From: a virus
DNA length: 64,000 nt
IMG/VR virus record: IMGVR_UViG_3300016469_000426
Span: 3,785-67,784 of that record
Strand: one strand, 5' to 3'
Below are positions 23,411 to 57,080 of the stretch, one piece after another (within the stretch, counting starts at the first letter, position 1; the number at the start of each line of letters is the position of its first letter). The translations under genes were made by a program, and so were the position numbers. The notes beneath the pieces were generated by a model that worked only from the letters and a program-made list of their open reading frames with translations, had not been told where the DNA came from and ran no database searches.

Positions 23411-25006
23411 TTAAGCTAGTTCTACAGATAGTACTCCAGCATTAGTAAAGATACGATACCTGTTACCATTAGTTCTGTCTAACACAATGAAACCGCGATT
23501 ATTGGTGAGAGTTTCAACATCTCCGTTTACAGTAAGTTTAGATGTGATACCAGCATTAGTACCAATACCTACGTTTCCGGAACCATTCAGGTAAGAATCT
23601 GCTGTTTTAGATAAAGCAAAGCTTGGAGTAGTAGAGAGCCATCCCAAGAATAAAGCATCATCATGAGTACTTTCCATGTATCCGGAAGAGTAATTACCGT
23701 ATCCCATTACAATAGCTCCTCTATGAGAAGCTTTAGTAAAATACCCAACAGCTACACCATTTTGTGCACGAGCTTCAGCAAAAGAACTTAAGCTTAGTGA
23801 ATCTACAGAATTAGCTATGGTAGATACCCCGATGGCAATAGAATTTGCACCTGAAGCGGCAGCTAGATAAGCTATAGCCACCGAAAAGTTTCCAGAAGCA
23901 GTACATTGGGTACCAAGAGCCAGTGCCGCAAAAGCAGAGGCTGTACCAAAAGAACCGATAGCTGCGGCATAATCTGCTGTAGCAACAGATTGTGTACCTA
24001 GAGCTGTAGTTGATGGCCTTGTTCCGGAAGAATAAATCCCCATTACTACCGCGTTTGCACCTGTTGCGCTGGCCTCCTGTCCTATTACGATAGAAGCTCC
24101 GCTACCTAATGTGGTATTAGCATTAATACCCATGATAATACCACCATCATCTCTCAGATATGCAAGAGCTGCATCAGCAAAATTACGAATGTGTAAACTG
24201 TAAGTAGAATTACCAGCTCCAGCTCCTTTAACATTAAAAGTAGCATTACCGGTAATAGCATTCACCATTACTTTGGTATTCTGAATATAAATTTCTGGAA
24301 CTACACTGATTGCAGGAGAAGCCCCATCTACAATAAGAGCAATACTAGATATGTTGCTCTCGTTAGAAATTACAAGATTACCGGTGGTGCTTTTTGAAAG
24401 AACATATGCTCCTTGATACCAAGTCCCGACCTCATCTGTTTTCCCGTGAAGTGTAAGATGTGCAGTATCTGAACCACCAACCATGTATGATAAACGAGCA
24501 TATCTTGTAGGTCCAGTTTCCAACATCGCAGTTACAGGCTGACCTGCTCCGCTTTTATTTACATGTAGTTCATAAAGAGGAAGAATATTGATACCAACTT
24601 TTGCGTCATTGAGTGTTCCAAACTGAAGACTATGCCCACCAAAATTTACTGATCTTGGACCAGTAAATGTTCCATTACTGTTATAGATATTTACACTTAC
24701 CGGTGGAGGTAAAAGATCTATGAAATCTTCAATACTAACTGCAAAATTTTGGTAACTGCTTTGATTTCTGGAATCTTTTACTTTTTTACCAATGACCAAA
24801 AGATCTGCATTTTCTAGTTGCAATTCTGTAATCAAACGGCCGTTAGCTATAATGGCGGGAAAGTTTACAACATCCATGTGATAACTGTATTTACTATAAT
24901 ATACAGAATTATCATCACTTTGCCAAATTTTTTGTTGCCCGGGAACGATTTGAACGTCCGTTCTCTGGTCCAAAACCAGATGTCCTGCCGCTAGACGACC
25001 GGGCAT
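23411..25006 (-). CDS. tail fibre / receptor-binding protein
   Basis: 531 aa, Gly/Ala/Ser/Asn-rich beta repeats (GANSIAIGV, GNVGIGTNAG). Confidence 0.55.
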   Translation of the reverse strand: MPGRLAAGHLVLDQRTDVQIVPGQQKIWQSDDNSVYYSKYSYHMDVVNFPAIIANGRLITELQLENADLLVIGKKVKDSRNQSSYQNFAVSIEDFIDLLPPPVSVNIYNSNGTFTGPRSVNFGGHSLQFGTLNDAKVGINILPLYELHVNKSGAGQPVTAMLETGPTRYARLSYMVGGSDTAHLTLHGKTDEVGTWYQGAYVLSKSTTGNLVISNESNISSIALIVDGASPAISVVPEIYIQNTKVMVNAITGNATFNVKGAGAGNSTYSLHIRNFADAALAYLRDDGGIIMGINANTTLGSGASIVIGQEASATGANAVVMGIYSSGTRPSTTALGTQSVATADYAAAIGSFGTASAFAALALGTQCTASGNFSVAIAYLAAASGANSIAIGVSTIANSVDSLSLSSFAEARAQNGVAVGYFTKASHRGAIVMGYGNYSSGYMESTHDDALFLGWLSTTPSFALSKTADSYLNGSGNVGIGTNAGITSKLTVNGDVETLTNNRGFIVLDRTNGNRYRIFTNAGVLSVELA

Positions 25007-25015
25007 TGTAATCAG

Positions 25016-25087
25016 AGACCCTGGAGAGATTCGAACTCCCGACCATCTGATCCGTATTCAGAAGCGCTTCCGCTGCGCCACAGGGTC
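25016..25087 (-). tRNA. tRNA-Arg (anticodon ACG)
   Basis: Hand-folded: acceptor GACCCTG/CAGGGTC, T-loop TTCGAAT, anticodon loop ATACGGA. Confidence 0.7.
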
Positions 25088-25094
25088 AAATTGG

Positions 25095-25167
25095 GGTGAC
25101 CGGCGAGATTTGAACTCGCAACCTTCTGCGCCACAAGCAGACGTTCCACCGATTGAACTACGGCCAC
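25095..25167 (-). tRNA. tRNA-His (GTG)
   Basis: Acceptor GTGGCCG/CGGTCAC, loop TTGTGGC. Confidence 0.7.
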
Positions 25168-25169
25168 AG

Positions 25170-25243
25170 AGCCCGAGGACGGAATCGAACCGCCGACCCT
25201 CTGTTTACAAAACAGTAGCTCTAACCCGCTGAGCTACTCGGGC
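25170..25243 (-). tRNA. tRNA-Thr (TGT)
   Basis: Acceptor GCCCGAG/CTCGGGC, loop TTTGTAA. Confidence 0.7.
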
Positions 25244-25251
25244 TAATATTG

Positions 25252-25324
25252 TATCCCGGACGGGATTTGAACCCGTGTGACCAGACTGAAAACCTGGGAT
25301 CCTAGACCACTAGATGACCGGGAC
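25252..25324 (-). tRNA. tRNA-Glu (TTC)
   Basis: GTCCCGG acceptor, 3-bp D-stem, loop TTTTCAG. Confidence 0.7.
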
Positions 25325-25389
25325 ATGTGAGTGTTCGGGAGACCTGGTACTATATCTCCTCCTTTATCAGGCGTCATTATCACTCGTTG

Positions 25390-25463
25390 TTGCGGGAATG
25401 GGATTCGAACCCATGTCGTTCGGCTTATGAGACCGAGCTGGAACCGCTCCAGTCCACCCCGCA
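25390..25463 (-). tRNA. tRNA-Met/Ile2-type (CAT), atypical 4-nt acceptor-to-D linker
   Basis: Acceptor TGCGGGG/TCCCGCA, loop CTCATAA, D-stem CTGG/CCAG. Confidence 0.55.
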
Positions 25464-25471
25464 TTATTTTG

Positions 25472-25545
25472 TAGGCCCTACCGGGTTTGAACCGGTGACC
25501 TTTACCTTATAAGAGTACTGCTCTGACCAGCTGAGCTAAGGGCCT
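25472..25545 (-). tRNA. tRNA with anticodon TAT (Ile, AUA-reading)
   Basis: Acceptor AGGCCCT/AGGGCCT, loop CTTATAA, one G-A mismatch at top of anticodon stem. Confidence 0.5.
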
Positions 25546-25554
25546 ATTACTTGG

Positions 25555-25626
25555 AACCCCTGACCAGACTCGAACTGGTAACCTTGAGCTTAGAAGTCTC
25601 TTGCTCTTCCATTGAGCTACAGGGGC
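25555..25626 (-). tRNA. tRNA-Arg (TCT), weak anticodon stem
   Basis: Acceptor GCCCCTG/CAGGGGT, loop CTTCTAA. Confidence 0.5.
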
Positions 25627-25634
25627 AGCTTCAG

Positions 25635-25706
25635 TTCCCCCGCCGGGAGTCGAACCCGGCCCCATAGATTAAAAGTCTATTGCCTACACCAGTTTGCTAC
25701 GAGGGA
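25635..25706 (-). tRNA. tRNA-Lys (TTT), weak D-stem
   Basis: Acceptor TCCCTCG/CGGGGGA, anticodon stem ATAGA/TCTAT, loop CTTTTAA. Confidence 0.55.
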
Positions 25707-25808
25707 ATGTTAAATCATGCTGACTTACGTCTGCACTTTATCTTCTTTCGTATCAAGCTGTTGTATAACATGACTGTTAAATCTTCTTTTTTGCTTTGTT
25801 AATTGTTG

Positions 25809-25886
25809 TAGGAACAGAAGGATTCGAACCTTCGACTGACCCTGCTTGTAAGGCAAGCGCTCTGAACCGGGCTGAGCTATGCTCCT
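25809..25886 (-). tRNA. tRNA-Val (TAC), 7-nt variable loop
   Basis: Acceptor AGGAGCA/TGTTCCT, loop CTTACAA. Confidence 0.6.
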
Positions 25887-25894
25887 ATTTTAGT

Positions 25895-25965
25895 TGACAT
25901 GGCAGGGATTGAACCTACGACCTCCCGCGTATCAGGCGGATGCTCTACCGCTGAGCTACATGTCA
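25895..25965 (-). tRNA. tRNA-Ile (GAT)
   Basis: Acceptor TGACATG/CATGTCA, loop CTGATAC. Confidence 0.7.
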
Positions 25966-25972
25966 ATGTTTG

Positions 25973-26045
25973 CGGACTGTATAGGGTTCGAACCTATGAC
26001 CCTCGCCTTAACAGGGCGCCGCTCAGCCAACCGAGCTCACAGTCC
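25973..26045 (-). tRNA. tRNA-Asn (GTT)
   Basis: Acceptor GGACTGT/ACAGTCC, loop CTGTTAA. Confidence 0.65.
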
Positions 26046-26049
26046 ATTG

Positions 26050-26126
26050 CGGTCTATGTCGGAGTCGAACCGACCTGATGTCCCGCGTGACAGGCGGGTG
26101 TCCACAACCAAGCAGACCCATAGACC
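26050..26126 (-). tRNA. tRNA-Asp (GTC), 7-nt variable loop
   Basis: Acceptor GGTCTAT/ATAGACC, stem CCCGC/GCGGG, loop CTGTCAC. Confidence 0.6.
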
Positions 26127-26131
26127 ATTAG

Positions 26132-26205
26132 AGCGAGTGATGAGGCTCGAACTCACAACACCCTGCTTGGAAGGCAGGTACTCTAGCCAATTGAGCTACA
26201 CTCGC
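26132..26205 (-). tRNA. tRNA-Gly (TCC)
   Basis: Acceptor GCGAGTG/CACTCGC, loop CTTCCAA. Confidence 0.7.
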
Positions 26206-26318
26206 AGTATCAACACTGATGAGGCTTTTTCAGAACTTAAGCTACACCCAGCATAGCATACGGCCTTTAACCGTTCCTCATCCTCCCGCTTCTGGATTAC
26301 AGGAGTTGTTTCAACTTG

Positions 26319-26393
26319 TGGAATGGCTGGGATTTGAACCCAGGACCTTCTGCTTGCAAAGCAGCTGCTCGACCAGACCGAGCTCCGCACCCC
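26319..26393 (-). tRNA. tRNA-Ala (TGC) with G3-U70
   Basis: Acceptor GGGGTGC/CCATTCC (G3.U70, one C-C mismatch), loop TTTGCAA. Confidence 0.55.
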
Positions 26394-26447
26394 TAGTGAC
26401 CCTTTTCTTTAATTTTCAGTTTGTGGCGGCCGATCCATATCTGCTAG

Positions 26448-26520
26448 TCGGAGTTGCTGGACTCGAACCAACGGTCTCCTGGTCCCAAACCAGGCGCGAT
26501 ACCAACTTCGCTAAACCCCG
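26448..26520 (-). tRNA. tRNA-Pro (TGG)
   Basis: Acceptor CGGGGTT/AACTCCG, loop TTTGGGA. Confidence 0.7.
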
Positions 26521-26523
26521 TAA

Positions 26524-26560
26524 ACAAAAAAAGCCCCTGATTTCTCAGAGGCTCTTTCTT
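26524..26560. terminator. hairpin flanked by A7 and T-rich tracts (bidirectional terminator-like) inside tRNA array
   Basis: agcccctga tttc tcagaggct, flanked by aaaaaaa and ctttctt. Confidence 0.4.
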
Positions 26561-26751
26561 ATCAAGTTAATCCAAAATTCTTATTTCATGATGGACACAA
26601 CAAGAGCCTCTACGCAATTCGGTTCGTCACCTTTGCGCACGATATTCATTTGGGCCGTATGTTGTATGTTTCTCATTTGCGTTACAAATATACAAACAAT
26701 TTATACATGTGCAACACAACATGTATATTTTTTTTTGATTTTCTTTATATG

Positions 26752-26825
26752 TACTCCCGACCGGACTCGAACCGGTAGCTTACGGATTTTAAGTCCGCTG
26801 TGTTTACCCATTTCACCACGGAAGT
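26752..26825 (-). tRNA. class-I tRNA with anticodon TAA (Leu codon UUA) but short variable loop and Gln/Glu-type 3-bp D-stem; identity uncertain
   Basis: Acceptor ACTTCCG/CGGGAGT, stem GCGGA/TCCGT, loop CTTAAAA, variable AAGCT. Confidence 0.5.
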
Positions 26826-26829
26826 ATTG

Positions 26830-26907
26830 TACCCTCTGAGAGACTCGAACTCTCACCCGAAGACTAGATCCTAAGTCTAGCGCGTCTACCAATTTCGCCA
26901 AGAGGGC
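26830..26907 (-). tRNA. tRNA-Leu (TAG) with short (9-nt) variable arm
   Basis: Acceptor GCCCTCT/AGAGGGT, stem CTAGA/TCTAG, loop CTTAGGA. Confidence 0.55.
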
Positions 26908-26914
26908 GTATTAG

Positions 26915-27000
26915 CGGAGAACAGTGGCCCTGATCCACAATCGTAATATTACGATCAGACTGCTTAGCAGGCAGCTCCTACCCAGGTAGGTTTATTCTCC
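26915..27000 (-). tRNA. tRNA-Ser (GCT)-like, class II, atypical T-loop
   Basis: Acceptor GGAGAAT/GTTCTCC, loop CTGCTAA (as in E. coli Ser-GCU), long variable hairpin ATCGTAATATTACGAT, T-loop ATCAGGG. Confidence 0.45.
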
Positions 27001-27004
27001 ATTG

Positions 27005-27077
27005 AGGTACCGGCGTGATTCGAACACGCGTACTCGAGTTTTGCAGACTGAGGACTAAACCGCTCATCCACGGTACC
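27005..27077 (-). tRNA. tRNA-Cys (GCA)
   Basis: Acceptor GGTACCG/CGGTACC, loop CTGCAAA. Confidence 0.6.
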
Positions 27078-27083
27078 TTGTTG

Positions 27084-27156
27084 CACATGAGGAAGGGGTC
27101 GAACCTCCGACACCTGGTTTTGGAGACCAGTGCTCTACCATCTGAGCTACTCATGT
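27084..27156 (-). tRNA. tRNA-Trp (CCA)
   Basis: Acceptor ACATGAG/CTCATGT, loop CTCCAAA. Confidence 0.7.
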
Positions 27157-27160
27157 ATAG

Positions 27161-27251
27161 CGGAAAGCGGAGGACCCGACCCCCAGTCCAGTTACCCAGA
27201 CACCCGGTTTTCAAGACCGGTCGCGGCTCCAATGCCACTGCTTCACTTTCC
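27161..27251 (-). tRNA. tRNA-Ser (TGA), class II, atypical T-loop
   Basis: Stem CCGGT/ACCGG, loop CTTGAAA; similar to E. coli Ser-UGA; T-loop TCGGGT. Confidence 0.5.
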
Positions 27252-27256
27252 AATTG

Positions 27257-27340
27257 TGGGACCCGGTGGACTCGAACCACTCCTCCGAAGAGACCGAATT
27301 TACAGTCCGGCTGCCGTATCCAAGACGACTTTCAGTTCCC
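27257..27340 (-). tRNA. tRNA-Tyr (GTA), class II
   Basis: Stem CCGGA/TTCGG, loop CTGTAAA, variable hairpin CTCTTCGGAG. Confidence 0.6.
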
Positions 27341-27348
27341 ATGTTTTG

Positions 27349-27421
27349 TGGAGCCACCTGGTATCGAACCAGGATCTCAGGATTTTCAGTCCCACGCATA
27401 GACCGTCTTTGCTATAGCTCC
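27349..27421 (-). tRNA. tRNA-Phe (GAA)
   Basis: Acceptor GGAGCTA/TGGCTCC, loop CTGAAAA. Confidence 0.7.
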
Positions 27422-27450: not shown

Positions 27451-27591
27451 CTTGTTCCATAATGCTTAACCTCAATACGAGACATTACTTCAATAGCTAC
27501 CCGGACCACCCTTAGGCGATAACCAGCAATAACTAAAGAGTAACGATTGTCTCATGGCACAAAGATAAGCATATTTTTCAAACACACAAGA

Positions 27592-28296
27592 TTAGTGGTA
27601 AGTTTTTATAGCATCTAAAACATCTGCTTCTGTTTTGATCCATCCCCTTTCTATAGCATTCACTACATATTTTTCAATTTGAGTTATAGTTTTAAGCTGA
27701 GCAGAGTTTGCGAGATTTCTCATGCCTCCTGCTTGGTGATAACCAAAAACTCTAGTGTTAATGGCTTTATAAACATTTTGATAAGTTAGCGCAGTAGCTT
27801 TACCGTTCAACATTCCGTTTATAGCTCCGTTAAGCGGTCTTACTTCAGTACCGGCCTCGATGCGATCAAATATCAAAGTATCGGTTAACCATATTACAAC
27901 CTTAGCATAGATCATGGGGTTGAGCTCCATAGCAAGAAGTACCCAGATATAGGGATCTGCCATTACAGTCTTGTTGCTTCCACGACCCGTAGTCTTCCAT
28001 ACTTCAAGACCTTTAAGAACGTTGACAATACCTTCTCTATCAACCATTTCGGTAAAACTAAGAAAACTTAGTTTTATGAGACCTCTCTCATACAGAAGGT
28101 GATAGGCCCTTTCCTTAAAATCTTTGGTTTGTAAAATCATGGTCAGGTTCTTATCACTCCACCCATGTTGCCACCTACCTTTTTCATAGGCGGCTTGTAG
28201 ATCAGACACAGATAAAAATCCCGGCTTTGTATTCTGCCGGATAGCCACACCAAACAACTCCCTGTCAGTGCTAGATAATGTTACGTTGGTTTTCAT
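27592..28296 (-). CDS. KilA-N/Bro-N-like DNA-binding domain protein (antirepressor-like)
   Basis: 234 aa; N-terminal FGVAIRQNTKPGFLSVSDLQAAY pattern resembles Bro-N/KilA-N. Confidence 0.35.
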   Translation of the reverse strand: MKTNVTLSSTDRELFGVAIRQNTKPGFLSVSDLQAAYEKGRWQHGWSDKNLTMILQTKDFKERAYHLLYERGLIKLSFLSFTEMVDREGIVNVLKGLEVWKTTGRGSNKTVMADPYIWVLLAMELNPMIYAKVVIWLTDTLIFDRIEAGTEVRPLNGAINGMLNGKATALTYQNVYKAINTRVFGYHQAGGMRNLANSAQLKTITQIEKYVVNAIERGWIKTEADVLDAIKTYH

Positions 28297-28441
28297 AAAG
28301 CCGAAAGTATGAATTCTTACTTATAAAGAAGGGATCATATATGACCTTTTATAAAAACTGTGTGGTAAAGTTATGAACATCCTGATATCTATTGATAGTT
28401 CTTGAACCGGCCTCAGGAATCTTGGAAGGATGAGAGTGTTA

Positions 28442-28453
28442 GGAGGGCCCTCC
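28442..28453. promoter_or_regulatory. perfect 12-bp palindrome GGAGGGCCCTCC in divergent control region
   Basis: Seen directly; lies between divergently transcribed modules. Confidence 0.35.
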
Positions 28454-28457
28454 AATC

Positions 28458-28466
28458 AACCCCCCT
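28458..28466 (+). promoter_or_regulatory. CAACCCCC motif copy 1
   Basis: caacccccc. Confidence 0.4.
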
Positions 28467-28703
28467 CGGTGTTTGGAAAGCGGGGGTACCCCGGGGTGCT
28501 TGACAGATCAAATCTGATTTCATGGGACATGAGGAAAAAGAATTCTTACAGGAGAATGTTTTCTGTGGCCTGATAGGATGAGAACATCTGGATGGTCTTG
28601 ATCATCCTTGTCTTGGTCATGTCTTGTGATGTCCAACGCACAAGGCCTGTGCTTGATTATACATTGATCTATGCACCTCGGGAACAAAAGCATATAAGGC
28701 GAT

Positions 28704-28711
28704 CAACCCCC
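28704..28711 (+). promoter_or_regulatory. CAACCCCC motif copy 2, 37 nt upstream of ATG 28748
   Basis: followed by TAAATGTTTAACC. Confidence 0.45.
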
Positions 28712-28747
28712 TTTAGCCTGTAAATGTTTAACCTTAATACCATCACC

Positions 28748-28972
28748 ATGAACAGTGTATTCAATTTTGAAAACGTTAACGGTCAGCGTAAGAAAACCGA
28801 GACAATTACTTACCGTAATGGTAACGTAGTAAAGAGAGTGTTTGACCACGTCAGCGATATCGTGCCAAGCGATATCATTCACGTTACAGATAATGCTCCT
28901 GTTGGTAAGATACCTGTAATGCCAATCGAGCATCGCGAGGTAGCCTTGTACAGACAGCACTACAACTGTTAA
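28748..28972 (+). CDS. hypothetical small protein
   Basis: ORF; start chosen at ATG following catcacc leader. Confidence 0.45.
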   Translation: MNSVFNFENVNGQRKKTETITYRNGNVVKRVFDHVSDIVPSDIIHVTDNAPVGKIPVMPIEHREVALYRQHYNC

Positions 28973-28975
28973 GAG

Positions 28976-29010
28976 AATAGCCAGGCCAAAGGGTCTGGCT
29001 TTTCTTTTCC
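28976..29010 (+). terminator. Rho-independent terminator
   Basis: agccagg ccaaagggt ctggct tttcttttcc. Confidence 0.45.
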
Positions 29011-29024
29011 ATGTTTCACATGTT

Positions 29025-29032
29025 CAACCCCC
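29025..29032 (+). promoter_or_regulatory. CAACCCCC motif copy 3
   Basis: 23 nt upstream of ATG 29055. Confidence 0.45.
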
Positions 29033-29054
29033 TTCGGGGATAAAACCCATCATC

Positions 29055-29357
29055 ATGAGAATATCCTTTGACCAAATGCGTACCATGAGATATGGTATCC
29101 ATTCTATAGGCACACATGTTCACGCAAAGCTACGCTACACAGCAGAGCTTACCGACAGAATGCTCACAGACAATGAGCTTCGTCCATACATGAATGACCT
29201 AACTGTCATGTTCAATAAGTCTAGGACGCATGCCCACATCGCATTCATAGCACATCAGAATGCTGGACTTGCACAATTGCTTTACCGCGTTGAACAAAGA
29301 CAAAGAGCTAAGCTTGCTATAGAGAAAGCGAGCAGAGTAATCGAGAGCCAGGCCTAA
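29055..29357 (+). CDS. hypothetical protein
   Basis: 100 aa ORF. Confidence 0.45.
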   Translation: MRISFDQMRTMRYGIHSIGTHVHAKLRYTAELTDRMLTDNELRPYMNDLTVMFNKSRTHAHIAFIAHQNAGLAQLLYRVEQRQRAKLAIEKASRVIESQA

Positions 29358-29372
29358 GCCTGGTTCTCTTCA
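29347..29372 (+). terminator. terminator-like hairpin plus T-rich tail overlapping gene end
   Basis: gccaggc ctaa gcctgg ttctctt. Confidence 0.35.
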
Positions 29373-29377
29373 TTAGT

Positions 29378-29384
29378 CAACCCC
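29378..29384 (+). promoter_or_regulatory. CAACCCC motif copy 4 (4 C)
   Basis: 26 nt upstream of ATG 29410. Confidence 0.4.
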
Positions 29385-29409
29385 TTAATCATCTCAAATA
29401 ACCATCACC

Positions 29410-29709
29410 ATGACAGCAACTCTTATTGACCCAAACTATGTTCTCAGCGATGAGAAGAAGACCAAGGTCTGTATGATTACAGACATCAACAAAGCCAACA
29501 AGCTATTACTTGGTCGCAATATCGATACTCAAGAGTTCGATATGCTTTACGATTCAGATGTGCACACACTGAGCGAAGTACTCAGACGTGTAGGCGAGGC
29601 TATCCGGTTCCGCATGAACGTGATCAACATAGCTCGTGAGCTATTTGAGATCAGCGAAGCAGCGAAACAATACCGTGAGAGACGGCGTTACGAGGAGGAC
29701 GGGAATTAA
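29410..29709 (+). CDS. hypothetical protein
   Basis: 99 aa ORF. Confidence 0.45.
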   Translation: MTATLIDPNYVLSDEKKTKVCMITDINKANKLLLGRNIDTQEFDMLYDSDVHTLSEVLRRVGEAIRFRMNVINIARELFEISEAAKQYRERRRYEEDGN

Positions 29710-29727
29710 TCCCGTTCTCTTTTTATC
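29697..29727 (+). terminator. terminator
   Basis: acggga attaa tcccgt tctctttttatc. Confidence 0.45.
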
Positions 29728-29732
29728 TGAGC

Positions 29733-29740
29733 CAACCCCC
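29733..29740 (+). promoter_or_regulatory. CAACCCCC motif copy 5
   Basis: followed by TATAAATATA then catcaccATG. Confidence 0.45.
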
Positions 29741-29765
29741 TTATTGATTATAAATATACATCACC

Positions 29766-30032
29766 ATGAAGAAGACAAGTAATGTAAGCAAGGTGTTACT
29801 CGTGACCTTGCTGGTAGCTGCAGTTGCATCTGCGGGCATCGAGTTATCTATCTGGTACTTCGGAGTAAAAGAGACCATGGTAGCGCTTGGAATCGTTGGT
29901 GGTATCGCATTCGCAATGATCATCTTCGGCCGTGAGAAGACAAGCTCACACTGGGTTGAAGATAATCGTGAGAGAATGTGGCATCAACAAAGGCTTACTG
30001 AAGAAGCCTTCAGGCAAAAGTACTGTAAGTAG
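29766..30032 (+). CDS. small two-TM membrane protein
   Basis: VLLVTLLVAAVASAGI and LGIVGGIAFAMIIFG hydrophobic helices. Confidence 0.5.
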   Translation: MKKTSNVSKVLLVTLLVAAVASAGIELSIWYFGVKETMVALGIVGGIAFAMIIFGREKTSSHWVEDNRERMWHQQRLTEEAFRQKYCK

Positions 30033-30220
30033 TACACTGGGTAGGGCAATAGCTCTACCCTTATCCTTCCGATTATCAGGTGATGGATAATGACACTGGG
30101 ACGCTCCTCATATGGAGGAGCTCTCAGCTGTCTTAAGTTTGGGACACGAGCCGCTCGCACTGATTACTTCAGGAACGCTCACCCAACGCACATGCCATCG
30201 CTTCATCCAATACACAAGAA

Positions 30221-30228
30221 CAACCCCC
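30221..30228 (+). promoter_or_regulatory. CAACCCCC motif copy 6
   Basis: followed by TAAATATTGTTTAACC. Confidence 0.45.
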
Positions 30229-30270
30229 TTTGGGTAGTAAATATTGTTTAACCATCTAAATCCAATCATC

Positions 30271-30654
30271 ATGAAAGCAACACTTGCACGCTCTTACAAG
30301 AGCAAGAACGGTAACACCGTATTCGTTTACGGCGTATCAGGCAAAGCAGACGAACTCGAAGCCTTTGCCAAAGCACAGGGCGATAACCATCGCGTTGACG
30401 AACAAACGGGTAAACCGCTTTGGTTCACCACACGTTGTATCGGCCAAACAGGTGAACTCATCATTACCACGAACGGTAAGGTCGTTCCCGACATGAGCGC
30501 CTTCGACCAGGCAGCCAGCCTTGCCAAGCAATACGGCGGTAACTTGGGCGACCAGCTTGCCAAAGCCGCAGCAGAGCAATTGCTCGGACATCGCGGCAAC
30601 ACAGCCAGCGTACCGCAGAACACACCTCAGGACACACCTGAAGAACAGTTCTAA
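30271..30654 (+). CDS. hypothetical protein, paralog A of duplicated pair
   Basis: MKATLARSYKSKNGNTVFVYGVSG...; ~70% identical to 31584..31970 product. Confidence 0.55.
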   Translation: MKATLARSYKSKNGNTVFVYGVSGKADELEAFAKAQGDNHRVDEQTGKPLWFTTRCIGQTGELIITTNGKVVPDMSAFDQAASLAKQYGGNLGDQLAKAAAEQLLGHRGNTASVPQNTPQDTPEEQF

Positions 30655-30660
30655 CAGAGA

Positions 30661-30695
30661 AGACACCCTTAACCGGGTGTCTTTCTTTTTTTTCC
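30661..30695 (+). terminator. Rho-independent terminator
   Basis: agacaccc ttaacc gggtgtct ttcttttttttcc. Confidence 0.6.
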
Positions 30696-30792
30696 TTCAT
30701 CAAAGATCTCCTACCAACAGGAGGTCACCTCGAGAGAAAGAAAGTTTTTACTATCATCCTCTCTGTCTGCCTCCATGACTCGCCGGCTCAAC

Positions 30793-30799
30793 CAACCCC
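30793..30799 (+). promoter_or_regulatory. CAACCCC(A) motif copy 7
   Basis: 21 nt upstream of ATG 30821. Confidence 0.35.
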
Positions 30800-30820
30800 A
30801 TTTCTTCATATCTTTGTGTC

Positions 30821-31123
30821 ATGGCTAAATCAACACGCAACAGCAATGCAGGGAAGTCGACAGGGAAGTCTGCCTCTGCCAAGTACTTTGCTTCTCACCC
30901 TGAAGCACGCGCTAAGAAGAACGAGTACAACAAGAAGTACCACGCAACCACCGAGCGAAAGAACTATCGTGAAGAACTCAACAAGGTTAACCGCCGGAAC
31001 AACGATGCCGGTTATGGCGACAACAAAGACTTAAGCCACACTAAGTCGGGTAAGCTCGTCCAGGAAAACCGATCATCTAATCGCGCTCGCAACGGTAAGA
31101 ACGGGAAATCCTCCAAGAAATAA
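30821..31123 (+). CDS. highly basic Lys/Arg/Asn-rich protein (nucleic-acid-binding candidate)
   Basis: 100 aa, pI clearly basic. Confidence 0.45.
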   Translation: MAKSTRNSNAGKSTGKSASAKYFASHPEARAKKNEYNKKYHATTERKNYREELNKVNRRNNDAGYGDNKDLSHTKSGKLVQENRSSNRARNGKNGKSSKK

Positions 31124-31140
31124 CCCCTTTCGCCAATCTA

Positions 31141-31168
31141 TAATCTTAGCTTACTAATCTTAGCTTAC
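31141..31168. repeat. perfect 14-bp tandem direct repeat taatcttagcttac x2
   Basis: Seen directly in 460-nt non-coding hub. Confidence 0.5.
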
Positions 31169-31272
31169 TACTCTATACTATATTACTCTTTACTGGTATT
31201 GTTAGGCGAGAAATGAACACGCCTAAGTGTCTGTGATTCTGCCATATAGCAGCCTTCCCGCTCACTTATCAA

Positions 31273-31288
31273 CCGACAAATTTGTCGG
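31273..31288. promoter_or_regulatory. 16-bp perfect palindrome CCGACAAATTTGTCGG (operator candidate, copy 1)
   Basis: Related copies at 32048 and 32155. Confidence 0.45.
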
Positions 31289-31319
31289 AAAAGCATTTGC
31301 TCTGTACTTGATCTCTTCC

Positions 31320-31327
31320 CAACCCCC
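31320..31327 (+). promoter_or_regulatory. CAACCCCC motif copy 8
   Basis: upstream of a 16-codon mini-ORF. Confidence 0.35.
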
Positions 31328-31494
31328 TTCTCCTTAGAACTTTTAGGTATGATTGAGAGTCGTCTGGTATGGCCTGACTATCTCATGATGCCATGAGTTA
31401 TTAACGCGAGAACGTTCAGAAGTGAGAGACATGTCAGTAAGTGGTGTCTTGAGCCGGCATTCTCGCTCACTTATTAACATCTTCAAGCTCCTAC

Positions 31495-31502
31495 CAACCC
31501 CC
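31495..31502 (+). promoter_or_regulatory. CAACCCCC motif copy 9
   Basis: upstream of paralog B; followed by TAATGTTTAACC. Confidence 0.45.
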
Positions 31503-31583
31503 TTTTCTCAGGACACATTGGCTCCATAGTCAGGATATGGAGATATGTGAGACATAATGTTTAACCCAAAAATCCAACTCAAG

Positions 31584-31970
31584 ATGAAAATCAAGTTGAT
31601 CCGCTCGTACAAGAGCAAAAACGGCAACACAGTGTTTGTGTATGCTGTAAGTGGAACCCAAGAGCAACTCGAGGCGTTCGCAAAAGCCCAAGGTGACAAT
31701 CACCGCGTGGATGAAGTAACCGGAACACCGTTGTGGTTCACAACTCGTTGCGTAGGTCAATCAGGAAACCTGATTATCACCACCAACGGTAAAGTTGTAC
31801 CTGACATGTCTGCGTTTGACCAGGCTGCAAGCTTGGCTGCACAGTACGGTGGTAACTTCGGTGACCAGTTGGCCCGTATGGCTGCTGAGCAATTGCTTGG
31901 CGGCGGTGCGAAGAGCACAGCTGTTGAAGCGAAGGCCGAACCGAAAGGTGAGGACATCAGTAAGCTGTAA
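31584..31970 (+). CDS. hypothetical protein, paralog B of duplicated pair
   Basis: MKIKLIRSYKSKNGNTVFVYAVSG...; alternative start 31557. Confidence 0.55.
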   Translation: MKIKLIRSYKSKNGNTVFVYAVSGTQEQLEAFAKAQGDNHRVDEVTGTPLWFTTRCVGQSGNLIITTNGKVVPDMSAFDQAASLAAQYGGNFGDQLARMAAEQLLGGGAKSTAVEAKAEPKGEDISKL

Positions 31971-31992
31971 AAGCGAGCTGATTTGCTTATAG

Positions 31993-32030
31993 GAGCTACC
32001 TTGAGAGATCTTGGTAGCTCTTTTTCTTTC
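31993..32030 (+). terminator. Rho-independent terminator
   Basis: gagctacc ttgagagatctt ggtagctc tttttctttc. Confidence 0.6.
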
Positions 32031-32047
32031 CCGACAAGGGTAAAACT

Positions 32048-32063
32048 CCGACAAAATTGTCGC
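32048..32063. promoter_or_regulatory. palindrome CCGACAAAATTGTCGC (operator candidate, copy 2)
   Basis: One-position variant of copy 1. Confidence 0.4.
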
Positions 32064-32154
32064 AAAATCGAGCACGCCAACTCGTAACTTATTGAAGATG
32101 AGAGAGAATGTGAGTGGGTATTAAACTCCCACTCCTTTCTCCACCTTCAAAACA

Positions 32155-32170
32155 CCGTCAAATTTGTCGC
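32155..32170. promoter_or_regulatory. palindrome CCGTCAAATTTGTCGC (operator candidate, copy 3)
   Basis: Half-site variant. Confidence 0.35.
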
Positions 32171-32224
32171 TAAGACAGACGACGACCTCGCACTATATAA
32201 CTATCACCACCTAATAACAAGCTT

Positions 32225-32470
32225 ATGGCTTTATCTGAAGACTCGATACGTTACCTATACTATCGTTATCAGGATCTTCTTAAAGATCTCAAGTATGAAA
32301 GAGACATTGCTCTAAAGCTAGGGGATAAAGAGCTATATGAAGTGCTAAGAGAGGCTATCGACCACGTTGAAGATTCTCAGAAGAAGGTTGATAACCATAT
32401 CCGCTTAACAAACGGCTCCAAAATCGTCCAACAGTTTAACAACTTACTGAAAGATGACTCGCTCAGCTGA
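32225..32470 (+). CDS. hypothetical protein
   Basis: 81 aa ORF. Confidence 0.45.
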   Translation: MALSEDSIRYLYYRYQDLLKDLKYERDIALKLGDKELYEVLREAIDHVEDSQKKVDNHIRLTNGSKIVQQFNNLLKDDSLS

Positions 32471-32681
32471 AGACGCTCTTGTAGAAGAGCATGAGAGATA
32501 CATGAAAGAAGTATCTGAGTCCGGCATGCCTTTGTGGATGCTGGATTACTACGCCAAGAGCAATGCTCAGTGGCAGGAAGAAGAACATCTCAAGAACCAA
32601 CTCAAAAACCCACACCATGAAGCCGACAAGGAAGATTCTCCGCCTCATGATGGAGGCGATGATCCCCATCTTTTTATATGA
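32454..32681 (+). CDS. hypothetical acidic protein (overlaps next ORF in another frame)
   Basis: 75 aa ORF. Confidence 0.3.
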   Translation: MTRSAEDALVEEHERYMKEVSESGMPLWMLDYYAKSNAQWQEEEHLKNQLKNPHHEADKEDSPPHDGGDDPHLFI

Positions 32682-32856
32682 GATAGGGGCAATAGGTTTC
32701 TGGTTACTAATATTTCCGTCGGGTACCCTGAGCGAAGTGCATTACCTTGCATGGAGACAGGATATACCCATTCTACTGGTCCTGTACAGTTGTCTGTACT
32801 TCACGGCCGGACTATGGTACCACTTTTATGCACATAGAGGTGAAGATGGAGATTAG
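32617..32856 (+). CDS. small membrane protein
   Basis: ATG after caccATG leader; IPIFLYEIGAIGFWLLIF and ILLVLYSCLYFTAGLW helices. Confidence 0.4.
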   Translation: MKPTRKILRLMMEAMIPIFLYEIGAIGFWLLIFPSGTLSEVHYLAWRQDIPILLVLYSCLYFTAGLWYHFYAHRGEDGD

Positions 32857-32952
32857 GTACACCAGCCAAAAAGTTTGTACAATCCTGGAAGATAATCCAG
32901 GGTTGCTAATGCATCATAATCCGGTTCCCAAGGCCGGACATCTGTAATATCC

Positions 32953-33348
32953 ATGAGCTCACCGATCAGCACTACATCGGAACACTCGCTTGATACCAAG
33001 CTATTACATATGAATGCAGAGGGGCAACCAATTAAACTAACGCGTATGAATGAGTATCTCGAACTGAGAAAAGAACTGAAAGATATCATCACTGGCCTAC
33101 TAGCCATGAAAGATCTTCAAGATCCCGACGGTGATCCTGCCGGTATACTTATTCAGAACTCAGCTACAGAGTACTGGTTACAGACCAGATACAATGCCTT
33201 TCTTAGGCTGGAAATATGTACTAAGTCCATGAACCAGTTCTTTACCAATGATGAGTTCCGACGACTCATACAAATGATAAGATCTGAGGACTCAGAGAAT
33301 GTTCATGTGGCTCGAGCCATACTGGATGAAAAGATTAAGACATTATAA
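32953..33348 (+). CDS. hypothetical protein with shared C-terminal module
   Basis: ...FRRLIQMIRSEDSENVHVARAILDE. Confidence 0.45.
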   Translation: MSSPISTTSEHSLDTKLLHMNAEGQPIKLTRMNEYLELRKELKDIITGLLAMKDLQDPDGDPAGILIQNSATEYWLQTRYNAFLRLEICTKSMNQFFTNDEFRRLIQMIRSEDSENVHVARAILDEKIKTL

Positions 33349-33546
33349 CATTGTTTCGCTAGGCAAGGCGAGACTGGTTGAAATACCTAATCTCCCAATC
33401 CGAATTCCATGAATGTAAAGAATCCTCTTGCACCTTCCTCTGGCGTTGCCGAGGGGTTGTCAGTCTCCAATGAGCTGGAGCAGTAATAGCGGGTGCAAGG
33501 CGCAGAACAGGATTGAGGATCAAAGCAGTCGCCAAATTGCTAAGAC

Positions 33547-33798
33547 ATGGAAAGCGAAACATCCCATTATAAACCAACTCAAACCCAACTCATTATGCAA
33601 GCTCAAGTTAAACTCTCAGATGCCTTATTCTCTACAGCAGAAGCCGTAGTAGCAATGGGCAAGAAGTCTGGTCTTGACATTAAGATCACCGACGTCTACA
33701 AAAAGGAAAACCTCGAAGGGTTAGCCATGATCTCAGGATTAATACGTCAGCTTGCAGAAAAAAGCAAAGGCGTCACGATTGAAGTACTTAATACTTAA
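33547..33798 (+). CDS. hypothetical protein
   Basis: 83 aa ORF. Confidence 0.4.
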   Translation: MESETSHYKPTQTQLIMQAQVKLSDALFSTAEAVVAMGKKSGLDIKITDVYKKENLEGLAMISGLIRQLAEKSKGVTIEVLNT

Positions 33799-33941
33799 AC
33801 TTGGGTAAAACACCCATGGATGATCTGCCTGAGTAAGATATCCGACTCACTAAAAGAGTCAAGACGTGAGGGTCGCACCCTTACCGGGCGCCTGGGCTAG
33901 GATCGGGGCGCCATTTTCTCTAACTATTAACTCAAATCATT

Positions 33942-34385
33942 ATGAAAAAGATACTCATACTTAGCTTAGCCATCATGGCTTTTACTGCTTGTAAGAAGGA
34001 GGAGAAGGCACCAACGCCTGCTCCTACACCTTCTACTACTACCTTGAATGCAACAGAGACTAGCTTAGCTGGCTCATGGGTGGTAACATATGAAGCACTG
34101 CTTGACACAGCAGGGAATATTATTCCGGGAAGTGTTATCACACGCACTGATACAACTAACTGCAGACTAGACCTGTTTACAACTCTGAATGCTACTGTAG
34201 GTAACAACTACAAGGATGGATATCAGGGATTGGCATGCATCTACGCAGTAACATACTGGAAAGCCACGCCCACTCATCTCGATTTATTCGGGACGCTTTA
34301 CTACATACGCACACTCACTTCCAGCATCCTCGAACTTACTTTTACAGCGGGTCCCAATACAGCAATCTTACACCTTGAGCGATGA
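33942..34385 (+). CDS. lipoprotein
   Basis: MKKILILSLAIMAFTAC signal peptide plus lipobox Cys. Confidence 0.6.
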   Translation: MKKILILSLAIMAFTACKKEEKAPTPAPTPSTTTLNATETSLAGSWVVTYEALLDTAGNIIPGSVITRTDTTNCRLDLFTTLNATVGNNYKDGYQGLACIYAVTYWKATPTHLDLFGTLYYIRTLTSSILELTFTAGPNTAILHLER

Positions 34386-34675
34386 AAAAGTTTTTAGCCC
34401 TATTGATCATATCACTATTCTTTATTTTGATGATGATGCTCATGAGTGGATGTGTAAACATGCCTCATAAAAGATACAAGATTGAATACTCTCCAGGTAA
34501 ACACAGCCGGTACATCTATACCAATTCTTACACTATCGATGAGAATGGATGCTTACATGTAAATGATGAAGGTTATATAGGTGGATGTGGATGTGGTGAA
34601 CCGGATATCATATGCGGTGACTTCACTATCACAGATAGAGGAGAACAAGGTGAATACAGCACAGTAGTTAATTAG
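34382..34675 (+). CDS. lipoprotein, Cys-rich mature part
   Basis: MKKFLALLIISLFFILMMMLMSGC lipobox; ATGA overlap with upstream gene. Confidence 0.55.
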   Translation: MKKFLALLIISLFFILMMMLMSGCVNMPHKRYKIEYSPGKHSRYIYTNSYTIDENGCLHVNDEGYIGGCGCGEPDIICGDFTITDRGEQGEYSTVVN

Positions 34676-35012
34676 TACTCGAGGATACGGCTCGCCTGCA
34701 GTAAGTCGCACGCGTAGTAAGTCGTAAAGCGAAGTCCGCCCTCGGGCAAACAATATTGCCGACCGGTCTAGGTTCGCCAGAAACAAGCCGTGACGTTGAG
34801 TATCCGGTATGCAACCTGGCTTGCCAGGATAACATCAGTGATCAGTGACTAGGTACGTGGAAACGGAAGGGTTCTCACCTGCAGGTAGACACGTCGGCAA
34901 CACCATTCCTGATTAAGCTTCATCGAGCACGTTTAATCAGAGGTCCGGTCTCAGCTACCTCCAAGAGATCGGACCACACTATTAAAGTTACACTCTCAAA
35001 ATAACCTAAGCC
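34676..35012 (+). ncRNA. ORF-free GC-richer structured region (candidate ncRNA)
   Basis: 337 nt without ORF, repeated gtaagtcg and cctgcag elements. Confidence 0.25.
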
Positions 35013-35315
35013 ATGAAAAAGAAAACCATTTTTGTAGTGTATACCAACGAAAAGGTAAACGCTAAAGAGGCAGGACGCTTAAAGCGATATGCCTTTAACA
35101 CGACAGCTCCAATCAAAGTAGGAGACATGTTGCAATCTCCAGAGTACTCAACCAAAATGCAGGTTGTAAACATACTGGACAGCGCTCATAAATATTTCAA
35201 CGGTTCCACCGGTGAATTGAGTGACAAGTTCAACTCAACAAGTCAGTGGGAGATTCGTGACTTCATTATCCGCGAGGACTCCGAGACCGCTGTCTACGGA
35301 AAAATCATTAAATAA
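35013..35315 (+). CDS. hypothetical protein
   Basis: 100 aa; preceded by aaaataacctaagccATG leader variant. Confidence 0.45.
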   Translation: MKKKTIFVVYTNEKVNAKEAGRLKRYAFNTTAPIKVGDMLQSPEYSTKMQVVNILDSAHKYFNGSTGELSDKFNSTSQWEIRDFIIREDSETAVYGKIIK

Positions 35316-35580
35316 TTGCCGGTGTTACCAGTGATGACGATCGCTGGATACGAAGTCTGTGAGAGCCCCGCTGGTGCATCGCAGTTAGCTGATCAGGCTA
35401 AAGCGGGATGACAGCCGGCAATACCCATTGGGGAGGAGGGGATGGGCAACCGCCCTCACTCATCACACTCCCTATAAGATTAAACCTGCTATAGATATAC
35501 TCCTGTAACACATGATGTCGTGATGCTCATGGGTAGAGGTATGTATAGCAGGTTTTCAATTAACCATTAAACCATTCACC
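35316..35580 (+). ncRNA. ORF-free structured region with long-range pairing (candidate ncRNA or ORF-less intron)
   Basis: ttgccgg...ccggcaa pairing enclosing ~95 nt; G-rich ggggaggaggggatggg. Confidence 0.25.
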
Positions 35581-35844
35581 GTGAAACTTATTGATAAACT
35601 CAAAAAACAGGTCAACGCCGCAGCAAAGGTAAAACCTGTAAAGAAAGGTGAGAAGCGATTGCTTTTCGTCTTCAAGGAAGAACATTACAAGAAAGAGATA
35701 TCTTCCGCCCAAGGATTCGGATCACAAGATCTTAAACCCAGCTATCTGGAACTGTACACCTACTTACTCGCTAAATACAAAGGAGCTCTTATCACCGAGG
35801 TAAGTAATCCGAGCAAGAAAGAAGTGAGTGTTTACATCAAGTAA
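35581..35844 (+). CDS. hypothetical basic protein (GTG start per ORF track)
   Basis: 87 aa ORF. Confidence 0.35.
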   Translation: MKLIDKLKKQVNAAAKVKPVKKGEKRLLFVFKEEHYKKEISSAQGFGSQDLKPSYLELYTYLLAKYKGALITEVSNPSKKEVSVYIK

Positions 35845-35871
35845 TAATTTTACCAACTCAACCCGCACTCT

Positions 35872-57012: not shown

Positions 57013-57080
57013 GGAGGACGTAGCTCAGTTGGTAGAGCAACGGTTGCCGTGGGTCGTAGGTTCGAGTCCTACCATCCTCC
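57013..57080 (+). pseudogene. tRNA-like sequence with truncated anticodon arm (tRNA pseudogene or tRNA-derived element)
   Basis: GAGGACG TA GCTCAGTTGGTAGAGC (canonical D-arm) then ACGG-TTG-CCGT mini-hairpin, T-arm GTAGG TTCGAGT CCTAC, acceptor CATCCTC; ~68 nt. Confidence 0.4.

Follow-up and report, generated by a model that had tools for sequence, protein, structure and literature searches.

A strand-specific, C-rich motif at the head of a crAss-related phage gene module: a candidate early promoter

The subject of this study is a short C-rich motif, CAACCCC(C)TT, which is repeated in front of small genes in a 64,000-nucleotide (nt) stretch of viral DNA (IMG/VR record IMGVR_UViG_3300016469_000426, positions 3,785 to 67,784), referred to as the window in the following. 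The window is organized in two divergent modules. The first runs on the minus strand from position 28296 to 1 and encodes an amidase-like protein, a tRNA array, TerL, the portal, the major capsid protein and tail-type proteins. The second occupies the plus strand from about 28450 to 64000 and begins with small ORFans, which are followed by replication-type genes (helicase, nucleases, homing endonucleases). The motif cluster opens this plus-strand module, exactly at the divergent junction of the two. An original prediction had described nine plus-strand copies of the motif within 3.1 kb, one per small early gene, and had proposed that they represent either a phage-specific promoter, read by an RNA polymerase (RNAP) or sigma factor of the phage, or a regulator-binding site.

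Motif copies, genes and hairpins at the divergent junction

Exact matches to CAACCCCC occur seven times, at 28457, 28704, 29025, 29733, 30221, 31320 and 31495, all of them on the plus strand. The expectation is 0.71, and none of 100 dinucleotide-preserving shuffles reached seven. When one position is relaxed, CAACCCCTT at 29378 and CAACCCCATT at 30793 join the set, and the predicted number of nine copies is thereby real: all are intergenic, all lie on the plus strand, and together they span 3.05 kb. The 10-mer CAACCCCCTT is the most over-represented of the 64-kb window, with six copies where 0.04 are expected and none on the minus strand. The motif is asymmetric and CAACCCCCTT is not self-complementary; the plus strand carries six to nine copies, the minus strand none. 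The run of C varies from four to six bases across the copies. Similarity around them is limited to repeat families of 14–33 nt, the sole long repeat in the region being a coding duplication that comprises the genes parA and parB (299 nt, 72% identity). Two further plus-strand matches to CAACCCC belong to a different class: the one at 6031 lies within a minus-strand gene, and the one at 39363 forms the 5' arm of a hairpin.

In order of position, the cluster contains the following features (distances to an ATG are counted from the motif start):

28457..28466, plus: motif copy 1, CAACCCCCCT, with six C; first element of the conserved, presumably early region; the next ~240 nt are conserved and non-coding
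28704..28713, plus: motif copy 2, CAACCCCCTT; ATG 28748 is 44 nt on
28748-28972, plus: early-type gene 1
28971..29008, plus: terminator-like hairpin with T-rich tail after gene 1; dG -22.8 kcal/mol, z -5.95
29025..29034, plus: motif copy 3, CAACCCCCTT; 16 nt past hairpin 28971-29008; ATG 29055 is 30 nt on
29055-29357, plus: early-type gene 2
29343..29368, plus: terminator-like hairpin after gene 2; dG -21.0 kcal/mol, z -5.86
29378..29386, plus: motif copy 4, CAACCCCTT, with four C; 9 nt past hairpin 29343-29368; ATG 29410 is 32 nt on
29410-29709, plus: early-type gene 3
29692..29722, plus: terminator-like hairpin with T-run after gene 3; dG -19.6 kcal/mol, z -4.57
29733..29742, plus: motif copy 5, CAACCCCCTT; 10 nt past hairpin 29692-29722; ATG 29766 is 33 nt on
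29766-30032, plus: early-type gene 4
30039..30060, plus: terminator-like hairpin after gene 4; dG -16.3 kcal/mol, z -3.83
30221..30230, plus: motif copy 6, CAACCCCCTT; ATG 30271 (parA) is 50 nt on
30271-30654, plus: parA, encoding a conserved, presumably early protein
30656..30688, plus: terminator-like hairpin with T8 run after parA; dG -17.2 kcal/mol, z -4.77
30793..30802, plus: motif copy 7, variant CAACCCCATT; ATG 30821 is 28 nt on
30821-31123, plus: gene for a basic protein of 100 amino acids (aa), phrog_6437
31320..31329, plus: motif copy 8, CAACCCCCTT; distal member of a tandem pair before parB, followed only by a 15-codon open reading frame (ORF)
31495..31504, plus: motif copy 9, CAACCCCCTT; proximal member of the pair; the conserved parB ATG 31584 is 89 nt on
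31584-31970, plus: parB
31991..32022, plus: terminator-like hairpin with T-run after parB; dG -21.2 kcal/mol, z -3.28

The proposed pairing of one motif with each small gene holds for seven copies, which precede the seven credible genes, but not for those at 28457 and 31320, which precede none. Likewise, six copies lie 28–50 nt from their ATG, well within the 20–75 nt originally given for all, but the copy at 31495 lies 89 nt from the conserved start of parB (31584, which differs from the program-made ORF start at 31557). Strong hairpins with T-rich tails end six of the seven genes (dG -16 to -23 kcal/mol, z -3.3 to -6). Three copies indeed follow such a hairpin immediately, after 16, 9 and 10 nt, but at two other junctions the gap measures 160 and 104 nt. 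Because the motif stays near the next ATG even there, it belongs to the downstream unit; and the 9–16 nt at the three tight junctions leave no room for a separate promoter between hairpin and motif.

Two further features, the A/T block that had been noted after most copies and TGTTTAACC, are either weaker than the motif or separate from it. Five copies are followed by an A-rich block (TAAAT, TAAAA or CAAAT), 6–7 nt past the 10-mer rather than 9–10 nt, which tolerates substitutions in a closely related sister genome (GATAAAACC to ACAAAATCC; TAGTAAAT to TAACAAAT) in which the core is unchanged. TGTTTAAC is present in three cases, as described (28725, 30245 and 31558), but it tracks the start codon, 15–26 nt upstream of it, and not the motif. 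Since its distance to the ATG is kept and the parB leaders of other lineages conserve it too, we regard it as a leader element and not as part of the motif.

In five of the seven genes, the start codon lies in the context CATCAYCATG or in a near variant of it (28741, 29048, 29403 and 29759; variant at 30263), and the genes of this region lack Shine-Dalgarno (SD) sequences. Elsewhere, AAATCTAAGC occurs five times, on the plus strand only (37808, 39423, 41949, 44659 and 57731), 0–3 nt before the ATGs of later plus-strand genes. Two gene sets are marked by two distinct SD-less start contexts, CATCAYCATG in the early-type and AAATCTAAGC in the later plus-strand genes.

The stretch between copies 1 and 2 (28467-28703) comprises ~240 nt of non-coding DNA, is ~95% identical in the sister genome and folds somewhat more stably than shuffled sequences (z -2.56). 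As a candidate for an early non-coding RNA, it recalls the abundant early non-coding transcripts from intergenic regions of phage phi14:2 (bioRxiv 10.1101/2020.03.07.982082).

Lineage-specific variants of the motif

For comparison, 12 loci with parA were retrieved from IMG/VR, and one more was obtained from a profile search. The sister genome mentioned above (contig IMGVR_UViG_3300044843_000700, 122 kb; loci L013 and L071) is 90% identical across the region. Its alignment with the window starts ~20 nt upstream of copy 1, the DNA before that being unalignable; copy 1 marks the start of conservation, which we count in favor of a promoter. The cores differ by one change in ~90 motif bases (the C-run of copy 5, four bases in the sister and five in the window), whereas the bases just 3' of the core do accumulate substitutions; the intergenic region of copy 4 is 100% identical. 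In ~52 kb of the late/virion module of the sister genome, neither CAACCCCC nor AACCCC[CT]T has a single copy.

Seven further lineages (59–71% parA identity) each possess a motif variant of their own, in two to seven copies that are again intergenic and confined to the plus strand. The variants are clustered within 0.1–3 kb upstream of small genes, at equivalent positions:

L015, plus: ACAACCCCTT, 2 copies vs 0.03 expected; the contig starts inside the cluster
L021, plus: CACAACCCTTTCT and CCAACCCCYTCTTG, 5 copies
L022, plus: CAACCCCYTT, 6 copies vs 0.03 expected
L024, plus: TACACCCCTTA, 4 copies vs 0.01 expected
L016, plus: TTCCTTTCTT, 7 copies vs 0.10 expected
L023, plus: CCTKTCCTTGT, 4 copies vs 0.06 expected
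L090, plus: TATTTCWMAAAC, 6 copies vs 0.00 expected

Absence of the motif from related phages, which the original prediction had named as counter-evidence, was therefore not seen: a clustered, strand-specific motif stands at equivalent positions in every recovered lineage. Within each genome, the copies drift in concert, giving ACAACCCCTT, CCAACCCCTTTA, TTACACCCCTTA, TTCCTTTCTT, CCTTTCCTTGT and CTATTTCTAAAAC. As orthologous sites change together per genome, the motif has the properties of a cis element that co-evolves with a genome-encoded or genome-specific trans-acting reader. When viral contigs were scanned for the exact pattern CAACCCCCTT-N(10-40)-CATCAYCATG, two relevant loci emerged, the near-identical L004 and L012; ten other matches were single chance occurrences. 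The related loci range in G+C from 32% to 45%.

These lineages keep the order parA – basic protein (phrog_6437) – parB, while the remaining small genes are mostly lineage-specific. A tandem motif pair, 113–175 nt apart, precedes parB in five lineages (including L015, L016, L021 and L022), and in six lineages its proximal copy lies 81–96 nt before the parB ATG, also where the motif itself differs in sequence. The products of parA and parB, of about 127 aa and 75% identical to each other, are highly conserved in all related lineages (59–96% identity, 41 invariant columns), and their genes always flank that of the phrog_6437 protein. Neither has a match in Pfam, PHROG, PADLOC, PDB or GenBank phages; as the latter show no homologue of parB, no cultured relative with such an early region is available. 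Among the proteins of the cluster, searches of PHROGs, Pfam, PADLOC and PDB returned only the family of the basic protein, phrog_6437, whose function is unknown.

The surroundings of parB contain several additional elements. Its ~80-nt leader (31505-31590) is conserved across lineages, mainly as TAATGTTTAACCC-AAAA-CCAA-TCAAGATG, and includes a small hairpin with differing stems (CTCCATA/TATGGAG in the window, CTTGAC/GTTGAG in L015) around a common GTCAGGA loop; the fold alone is not significant (z -0.2). Upstream, TAATCTTAGCTTAC is perfectly duplicated in tandem at 31141-31168, and a 22-nt direct repeat, GCMTTCYCGCTCACTTATYAAC, lies at 31252-31273 and 31457-31478, i.e. 68 nt upstream of copy 8 and 38 nt upstream of copy 9. 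The two promoter-like regions before parB look like a duplicated module with a palindrome inserted in one copy. This palindrome, CCGACAAATTTGTCGG with the variants GACAAAATTGTC and GTCAAATTTGTC, is found at 31273-31292, 32048-32067 and 32155-32174, where its copies flank the parB unit and come to lie 68 nt before an ATG at 32225; a similar one, GTCAAATTTGTCG, precedes a gene of L022 (at about 3100). It looks like the operator of a dimeric regulator, distinct from the C-rich motif. Finally, a pyrimidine tract, ACTCCTTTCTCC, at 32130-32150, 89 nt before ATG 32225, resembles TTCCTTTCTT of L016 and CCTTTCCTTGT of L023 and may be a degenerate tenth copy controlled by the adjacent palindrome.

A candidate reader and competing explanations

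The portal encoded in the window is 22–33% identical to those of Leptolyngbya phage Lbo-JY46, csAssE-Sib, Cellulophaga phi17:2 and classical Crassvirales, and region 28300-31700 has no nucleotide similarity to GenBank phages. On these grounds, we take the window to be a divergent crAss-related phage. Its landmarks outside the cluster are as follows:

6918-8543, minus: major capsid protein, 541 aa (Pfam Crass_capsid, E 3.5e-32)
9963-12734, minus: portal, 923 aa
12740-14947, minus: TerL
24934-27421, minus: tRNA array of 23 genes for most amino acids, between the structural module and the divergent junction
39437-40546, plus: TROVE-like protein (DUF2828 + DUF7788, phrog_850 'RNA-binding protein')
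61973-62264, plus: group I intron (Rfam RF00028, 73.9 bits)

A 24th tRNA-like Rfam match lies at 57014-57080 on the plus strand, and the plus-strand module also encodes two LAGLIDADG proteins and one GIY-YIG/NUMOD3 protein. The TROVE-like gene is preceded by a conserved hairpin, CAACCCCACC...GGTGGTGGGTT, at 39363-39400, which is also found in L013 and L023.

In the gut and in many aquatic habitats, crAss-like phages rank with the most abundant viruses and, to our knowledge, all of them carry a giant virion RNAP. The window contains no gene for a sigma factor or an RNAP, and the latter was sought by walking along the sister contig past the left end of the window. There, a block of giant ORFs encodes proteins of 1,706, 821, 821, 1,027 and 1,646 aa, followed by one of 3,492 aa:

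L071:5501-15976 (sister contig, outside the window): 3,492-aa RNAP homologue, with SGSDFDIDKL at residue 2369

This protein is 22% identical to phi14:2 gp66 over 1,057 aa (gp66 residues 859-1743; BLASTP, E 1.3e-32), and its core matches 115 Crassvirales records, including phi14:2 g066, 'Catalytic RNA polymerase subunit' (tblastn, E 5e-25). It is ~1,300 residues longer than gp66, and the next ORF measures at least 1,839 aa. No RNAP signature was found in the 821-, 821-, 1,027- and 1,646-aa ORFs. Family matches in the block are those of the 1,706-aa ORF ('virion structural protein' PHROGs) and of the first 821-aa ORF (N-terminal ParB-like, E 6.9e-10); the former was considered as a homologue of phi14:2 gp67, but has no significant similarity to it. 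The place of the polymerase gene beside a giant ORF with virion structural matches is suggestive of an enzyme that is packaged in the virion. In phi14:2, gp66 enters with the DNA and transcribes early genes despite rifampicin (Drobysheva et al., bioRxiv 10.1101/2020.03.07.982082), and the purified enzyme is active on single-stranded or denatured DNA only (bioRxiv 10.1101/2020.03.07.982082).

The genes behind the motif copies are presumably early ones, given their position at the head of the module, their nature as small ORFans and the analogy with phi14:2 and crAss001. We count toward this the TROVE-like gene in the same module, as the early genes of crAss001 include one for a TROVE protein (PMC8375218).

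Scans for host-type promoters bear out the original statement that the motif fits neither sigma-70 nor the Bacteroidetes consensus. Sigma-70-like pairs (TTGACA/TATAAT, 16–18 nt spacing) are found at 11 sites in 27500-36500, where 15.0 are expected, and none overlaps a copy. Primary-sigma promoters of Bacteroidota consist of TTTG at -33 and TAnnTTTG at -7; the latter has 54 matches in the window against 53.8 expected, and only the one at 30809 follows a motif copy, 5 nt from an ATG. Other identities were rejected as well. Against an N4-type hairpin promoter, the minimum free energy is 0 to -0.9 kcal/mol at five of the nine sites, none of the sites beats shuffled sequences, and no structure is common to them. 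A dimeric helix-turn-helix (HTH) operator would have the dyad symmetry that the motif, present on one strand only, does not possess, and the remnant of a segmental duplication would extend beyond the 14–33 nt shared by the copies. In Rfam, region 28300-32300 gives two chance-level matches (E 0.45 and 0.73), and the whole window only tRNAs and the group I intron. Read on the minus strand, AAGGGGGTTG might be taken for a Shine-Dalgarno sequence, but no consistent minus-strand ORFs follow it and the genes lack such sequences. A search for transcript-like contigs that might mark start sites returned a single ordinary metagenome contig of 3.7 kb.

Seen together, these observations make it probable that the motif is a promoter of some kind, which we favor over a dyad operator because the motif is asymmetric and strictly one-stranded. 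For the more specific proposal, that it is the core of a lineage-specific early promoter read most likely by the crAss-type virion RNAP or a co-delivered factor, we see even chances. The lineage-specific motifs and the gp66-like RNAP in a near-identical genome thus lend support to the predicted phage-specific promoter or regulator site. CAACCCC(C)TT would then be the core recognition element, and each copy would start its own short transcription unit, consisting of one small host-takeover-type gene or a non-coding RNA, with most units stopping at the next hairpin terminator. The reader would most likely be phage machinery, either the giant two-barrel RNAP from the virion or an accompanying specificity factor, and less likely the host sigma-A holoenzyme. 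Transcripts would be expected to start a few to ~20 nt past the C-run, at the first purines, with leaders of 15–40 nt for most genes and a conserved one of ~80 nt for parB.

Several points weigh against this proposal. The case is built from DNA sequence, and early timing from position and analogy. The only studied enzyme of the family, phi14:2 gp66, showed no promoter motif, in that no common motif was found by the authors upstream of the early transcripts (bioRxiv 10.1101/2020.03.07.982082); our own k-mer scan detected no repeated motif in the phi14:2 early region (first 14 kb) either. Motif-directed initiation is consequently not established for this RNAP family. Moreover, the RNAP gene was found in the 90%-identical sister contig, outside the window, and the copies occupy only the initial 3 kb of a plus-strand module of >35 kb, which means that the remainder must be expressed otherwise. 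A C-run of four to six bases is also unusual for rigid recognition of double-stranded DNA. Lastly, an unusual sigma factor of the host may be the reader.

This last possibility, a promoter element for the host RNAP, could involve a primary sigma in an unrecognised architecture or an alternative or extracytoplasmic function (ECF)-type sigma, with the lineage differences reflecting different hosts. The position and orientation of the copies suit any promoter, and the G+C range of the loci is compatible with different hosts; moreover, the middle genes of phi14:2, like its late ones, use host-type promoters (bioRxiv 10.1101/2020.03.07.982082). The A-rich block after five copies resembles TAAAT/TATAAAT, but no more than 6–7 nt separate it from the core, and the sister genomes do not conserve it. 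No sigma-70-like -35/-10 pair overlaps any copy, and TAnnTTTG is not enriched and follows only one of them. Furthermore, a primary-sigma consensus is stable within a phylum, whereas the lineage motifs (CAACCCCCTT, TTCCTTTCTT and CTATTTCTAAAAC) have no host-like consensus in common, and the motif is limited to the first 3 kb of the module. We consider a host promoter unlikely. A site for a phage or host regulator that switches the early units, with the true promoter in the weakly conserved surroundings, was part of the original prediction and appears less likely again. It would agree with one motif per unit and with the HTH_36 and HTH_Crp_2 proteins encoded in the window; yet typical dimeric operators have dyad symmetry and are not bound to one strand, and the true palindrome nearby, CCGACAAATTTGTCGG with its three copies, looks like a member of that operator class. 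With 9–16 nt to the hairpin at three sites and 28–33 nt to the ATG at five, the motif is the sole conserved sequence where the promoter must sit.

The motif might also act at the RNA level, as a 5'-leader or processing signal that releases monocistronic mRNAs from a long early read-through transcript through cleavage, stability or translation. Strand specificity and proximity to start codons are what such a signal would show, the hairpins could be 3' stabilisers, the parB leader is conserved 3' of the motif, and early non-coding transcripts are abundant in phi14:2. However, copy 1 opens the conserved region with no conserved promoter before it, a hairpin with a T-run (T8 after parA) is a classical intrinsic terminator, and the motif has neither a consistent structure nor an Rfam match. 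Nor does a C-rich tract pair with the anti-SD sequence, in genes that lack SD sequences in the first place. This explanation is improbable, somewhat more so than a regulator site. Least probable is a passive recombination scar or cassette junction left by the shuffling of small ORFans, devoid of a regulatory role. The genes between the copies are mostly lineage-specific ORFans, with parA, the basic protein and parB as conserved exceptions, and the region resembles hyperplastic cassette regions, but copies also head the conserved genes, at distances kept across lineages. Their core is better conserved than their flanks, no similarity extends past 10–28 nt around them, and concerted drift within a genome needs selection by a trans-acting reader.

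Relation to known systems and significance

As a phage-specific early promoter, the motif would have its closest counterpart in phi14:2. The sister genome encodes a homologue of the giant two-barrel RNAP gp66 with its DFDID catalytic motif, the capsid, portal and terminase genes are of crAss type in both phages, and the early module of each reads away from its border with the structural module and has long non-coding stretches among its first genes. Yet phi14:2 has no common early motif, whereas a sharp motif stands before each unit here; the polymerases measure 2,180 and 3,492 aa, respectively, and are ~22% identical; and the early genes of phi14:2 form operons, while those described here form single-gene units with their own terminators.

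Resemblances to other phage promoters are of a more general kind. The T7-like single-subunit RNAPs (T7, T3, SP6, K11) use promoters of ~23 bp that serve middle and late genes after synthesis of the RNAP. Like the present motif, these are short, oriented, conserved sequences directly before transcription units, differ between relatives together with the polymerase and are unrelated to host promoters. The enzymes are Pol I-like single subunits rather than two-barrel polymerases, however, and the motif described here, with a core of ~10 nt, stands before the first genes and has no sequence similarity to those promoters. The promoters of the N4 virion RNAP are DNA hairpins with a stem of 5–7 bp and a 3-nt loop. 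In N4, as proposed for the present phage, an injected virion RNAP serves a handful of early units at one genome end, from few, clustered, phage-specific promoters (for context, see PMC13434306). Unlike these, five of the nine sites here are essentially without hairpin potential, and the two RNAP families are unrelated.

For the virion RNAP gp96 of phage P23-45, an AT-rich pre-early motif has been validated by ONT-cappable-seq and ChIP-seq (bioRxiv 10.1101/2022.12.01.518664). As would be the case here, that system ties a virion two-barrel RNAP to a conserved motif before the first genes, which is shared by RNAP-carrying relatives, and rests on the same comparative argument (bioRxiv 10.1101/2022.12.01.518664). 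The present motif differs from it in being C-rich and a candidate drawn from sequence comparison. In genetic layout, the region recalls the promoter-early stem-loop (PeSL) cassettes of T4-type phages that Arbiol et al. reportedly described in 2010: strings of small ORFans, each with a stem-loop terminator and its own early promoter, and a gene content that varies among relatives. These cassettes are said to use host sigma-70 early promoters, whereas the motif fits no host model. For a host from the Bacteroidota, which the missing SD sequences and the kinship with crAss suggest, primary-sigma promoters of that phylum would be the expected type, but the motif sites do not contain their consensus, nor is it enriched in the window.

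Phage-specific promoters are already known as a kind; what would be new here is the first testable recognition sequence for this polymerase family. We found no early promoter consensus for crAss-like phages in the literature, and the giant crAss RNAP is so far without a known promoter sequence; the motif and its natural variants would provide a concrete template for it. Tentatively, and with a little less confidence than in the early promoter itself, we propose that with this motif a promoter consensus becomes recognisable for the first time in the family of crAss-type giant virion RNAPs, and that its variants record the co-evolution of promoter and polymerase. If this is true, the motif would be visible here because this divergent lineage, with genomes of 110–128 kb, has its immediate-early region divided into many units of one gene each. 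The variants CAACCCCCTT, TTACACCCCTTA, TTCCTTTCTT, CCTTTCCTTGT and CTATTTCTAAAAC at orthologous sites would constitute a natural specificity set, which could help to locate the determinants of promoter recognition within ~1,600 RNAP residues that have no known fold relatives. The motif and its terminators would also supply compact, orthogonal promoter–terminator parts for Bacteroidota-type hosts. Finally, early units could be annotated in the metagenomic genomes of this clade, and the genes with which these phages take over their hosts immediately after infection would be marked as such.

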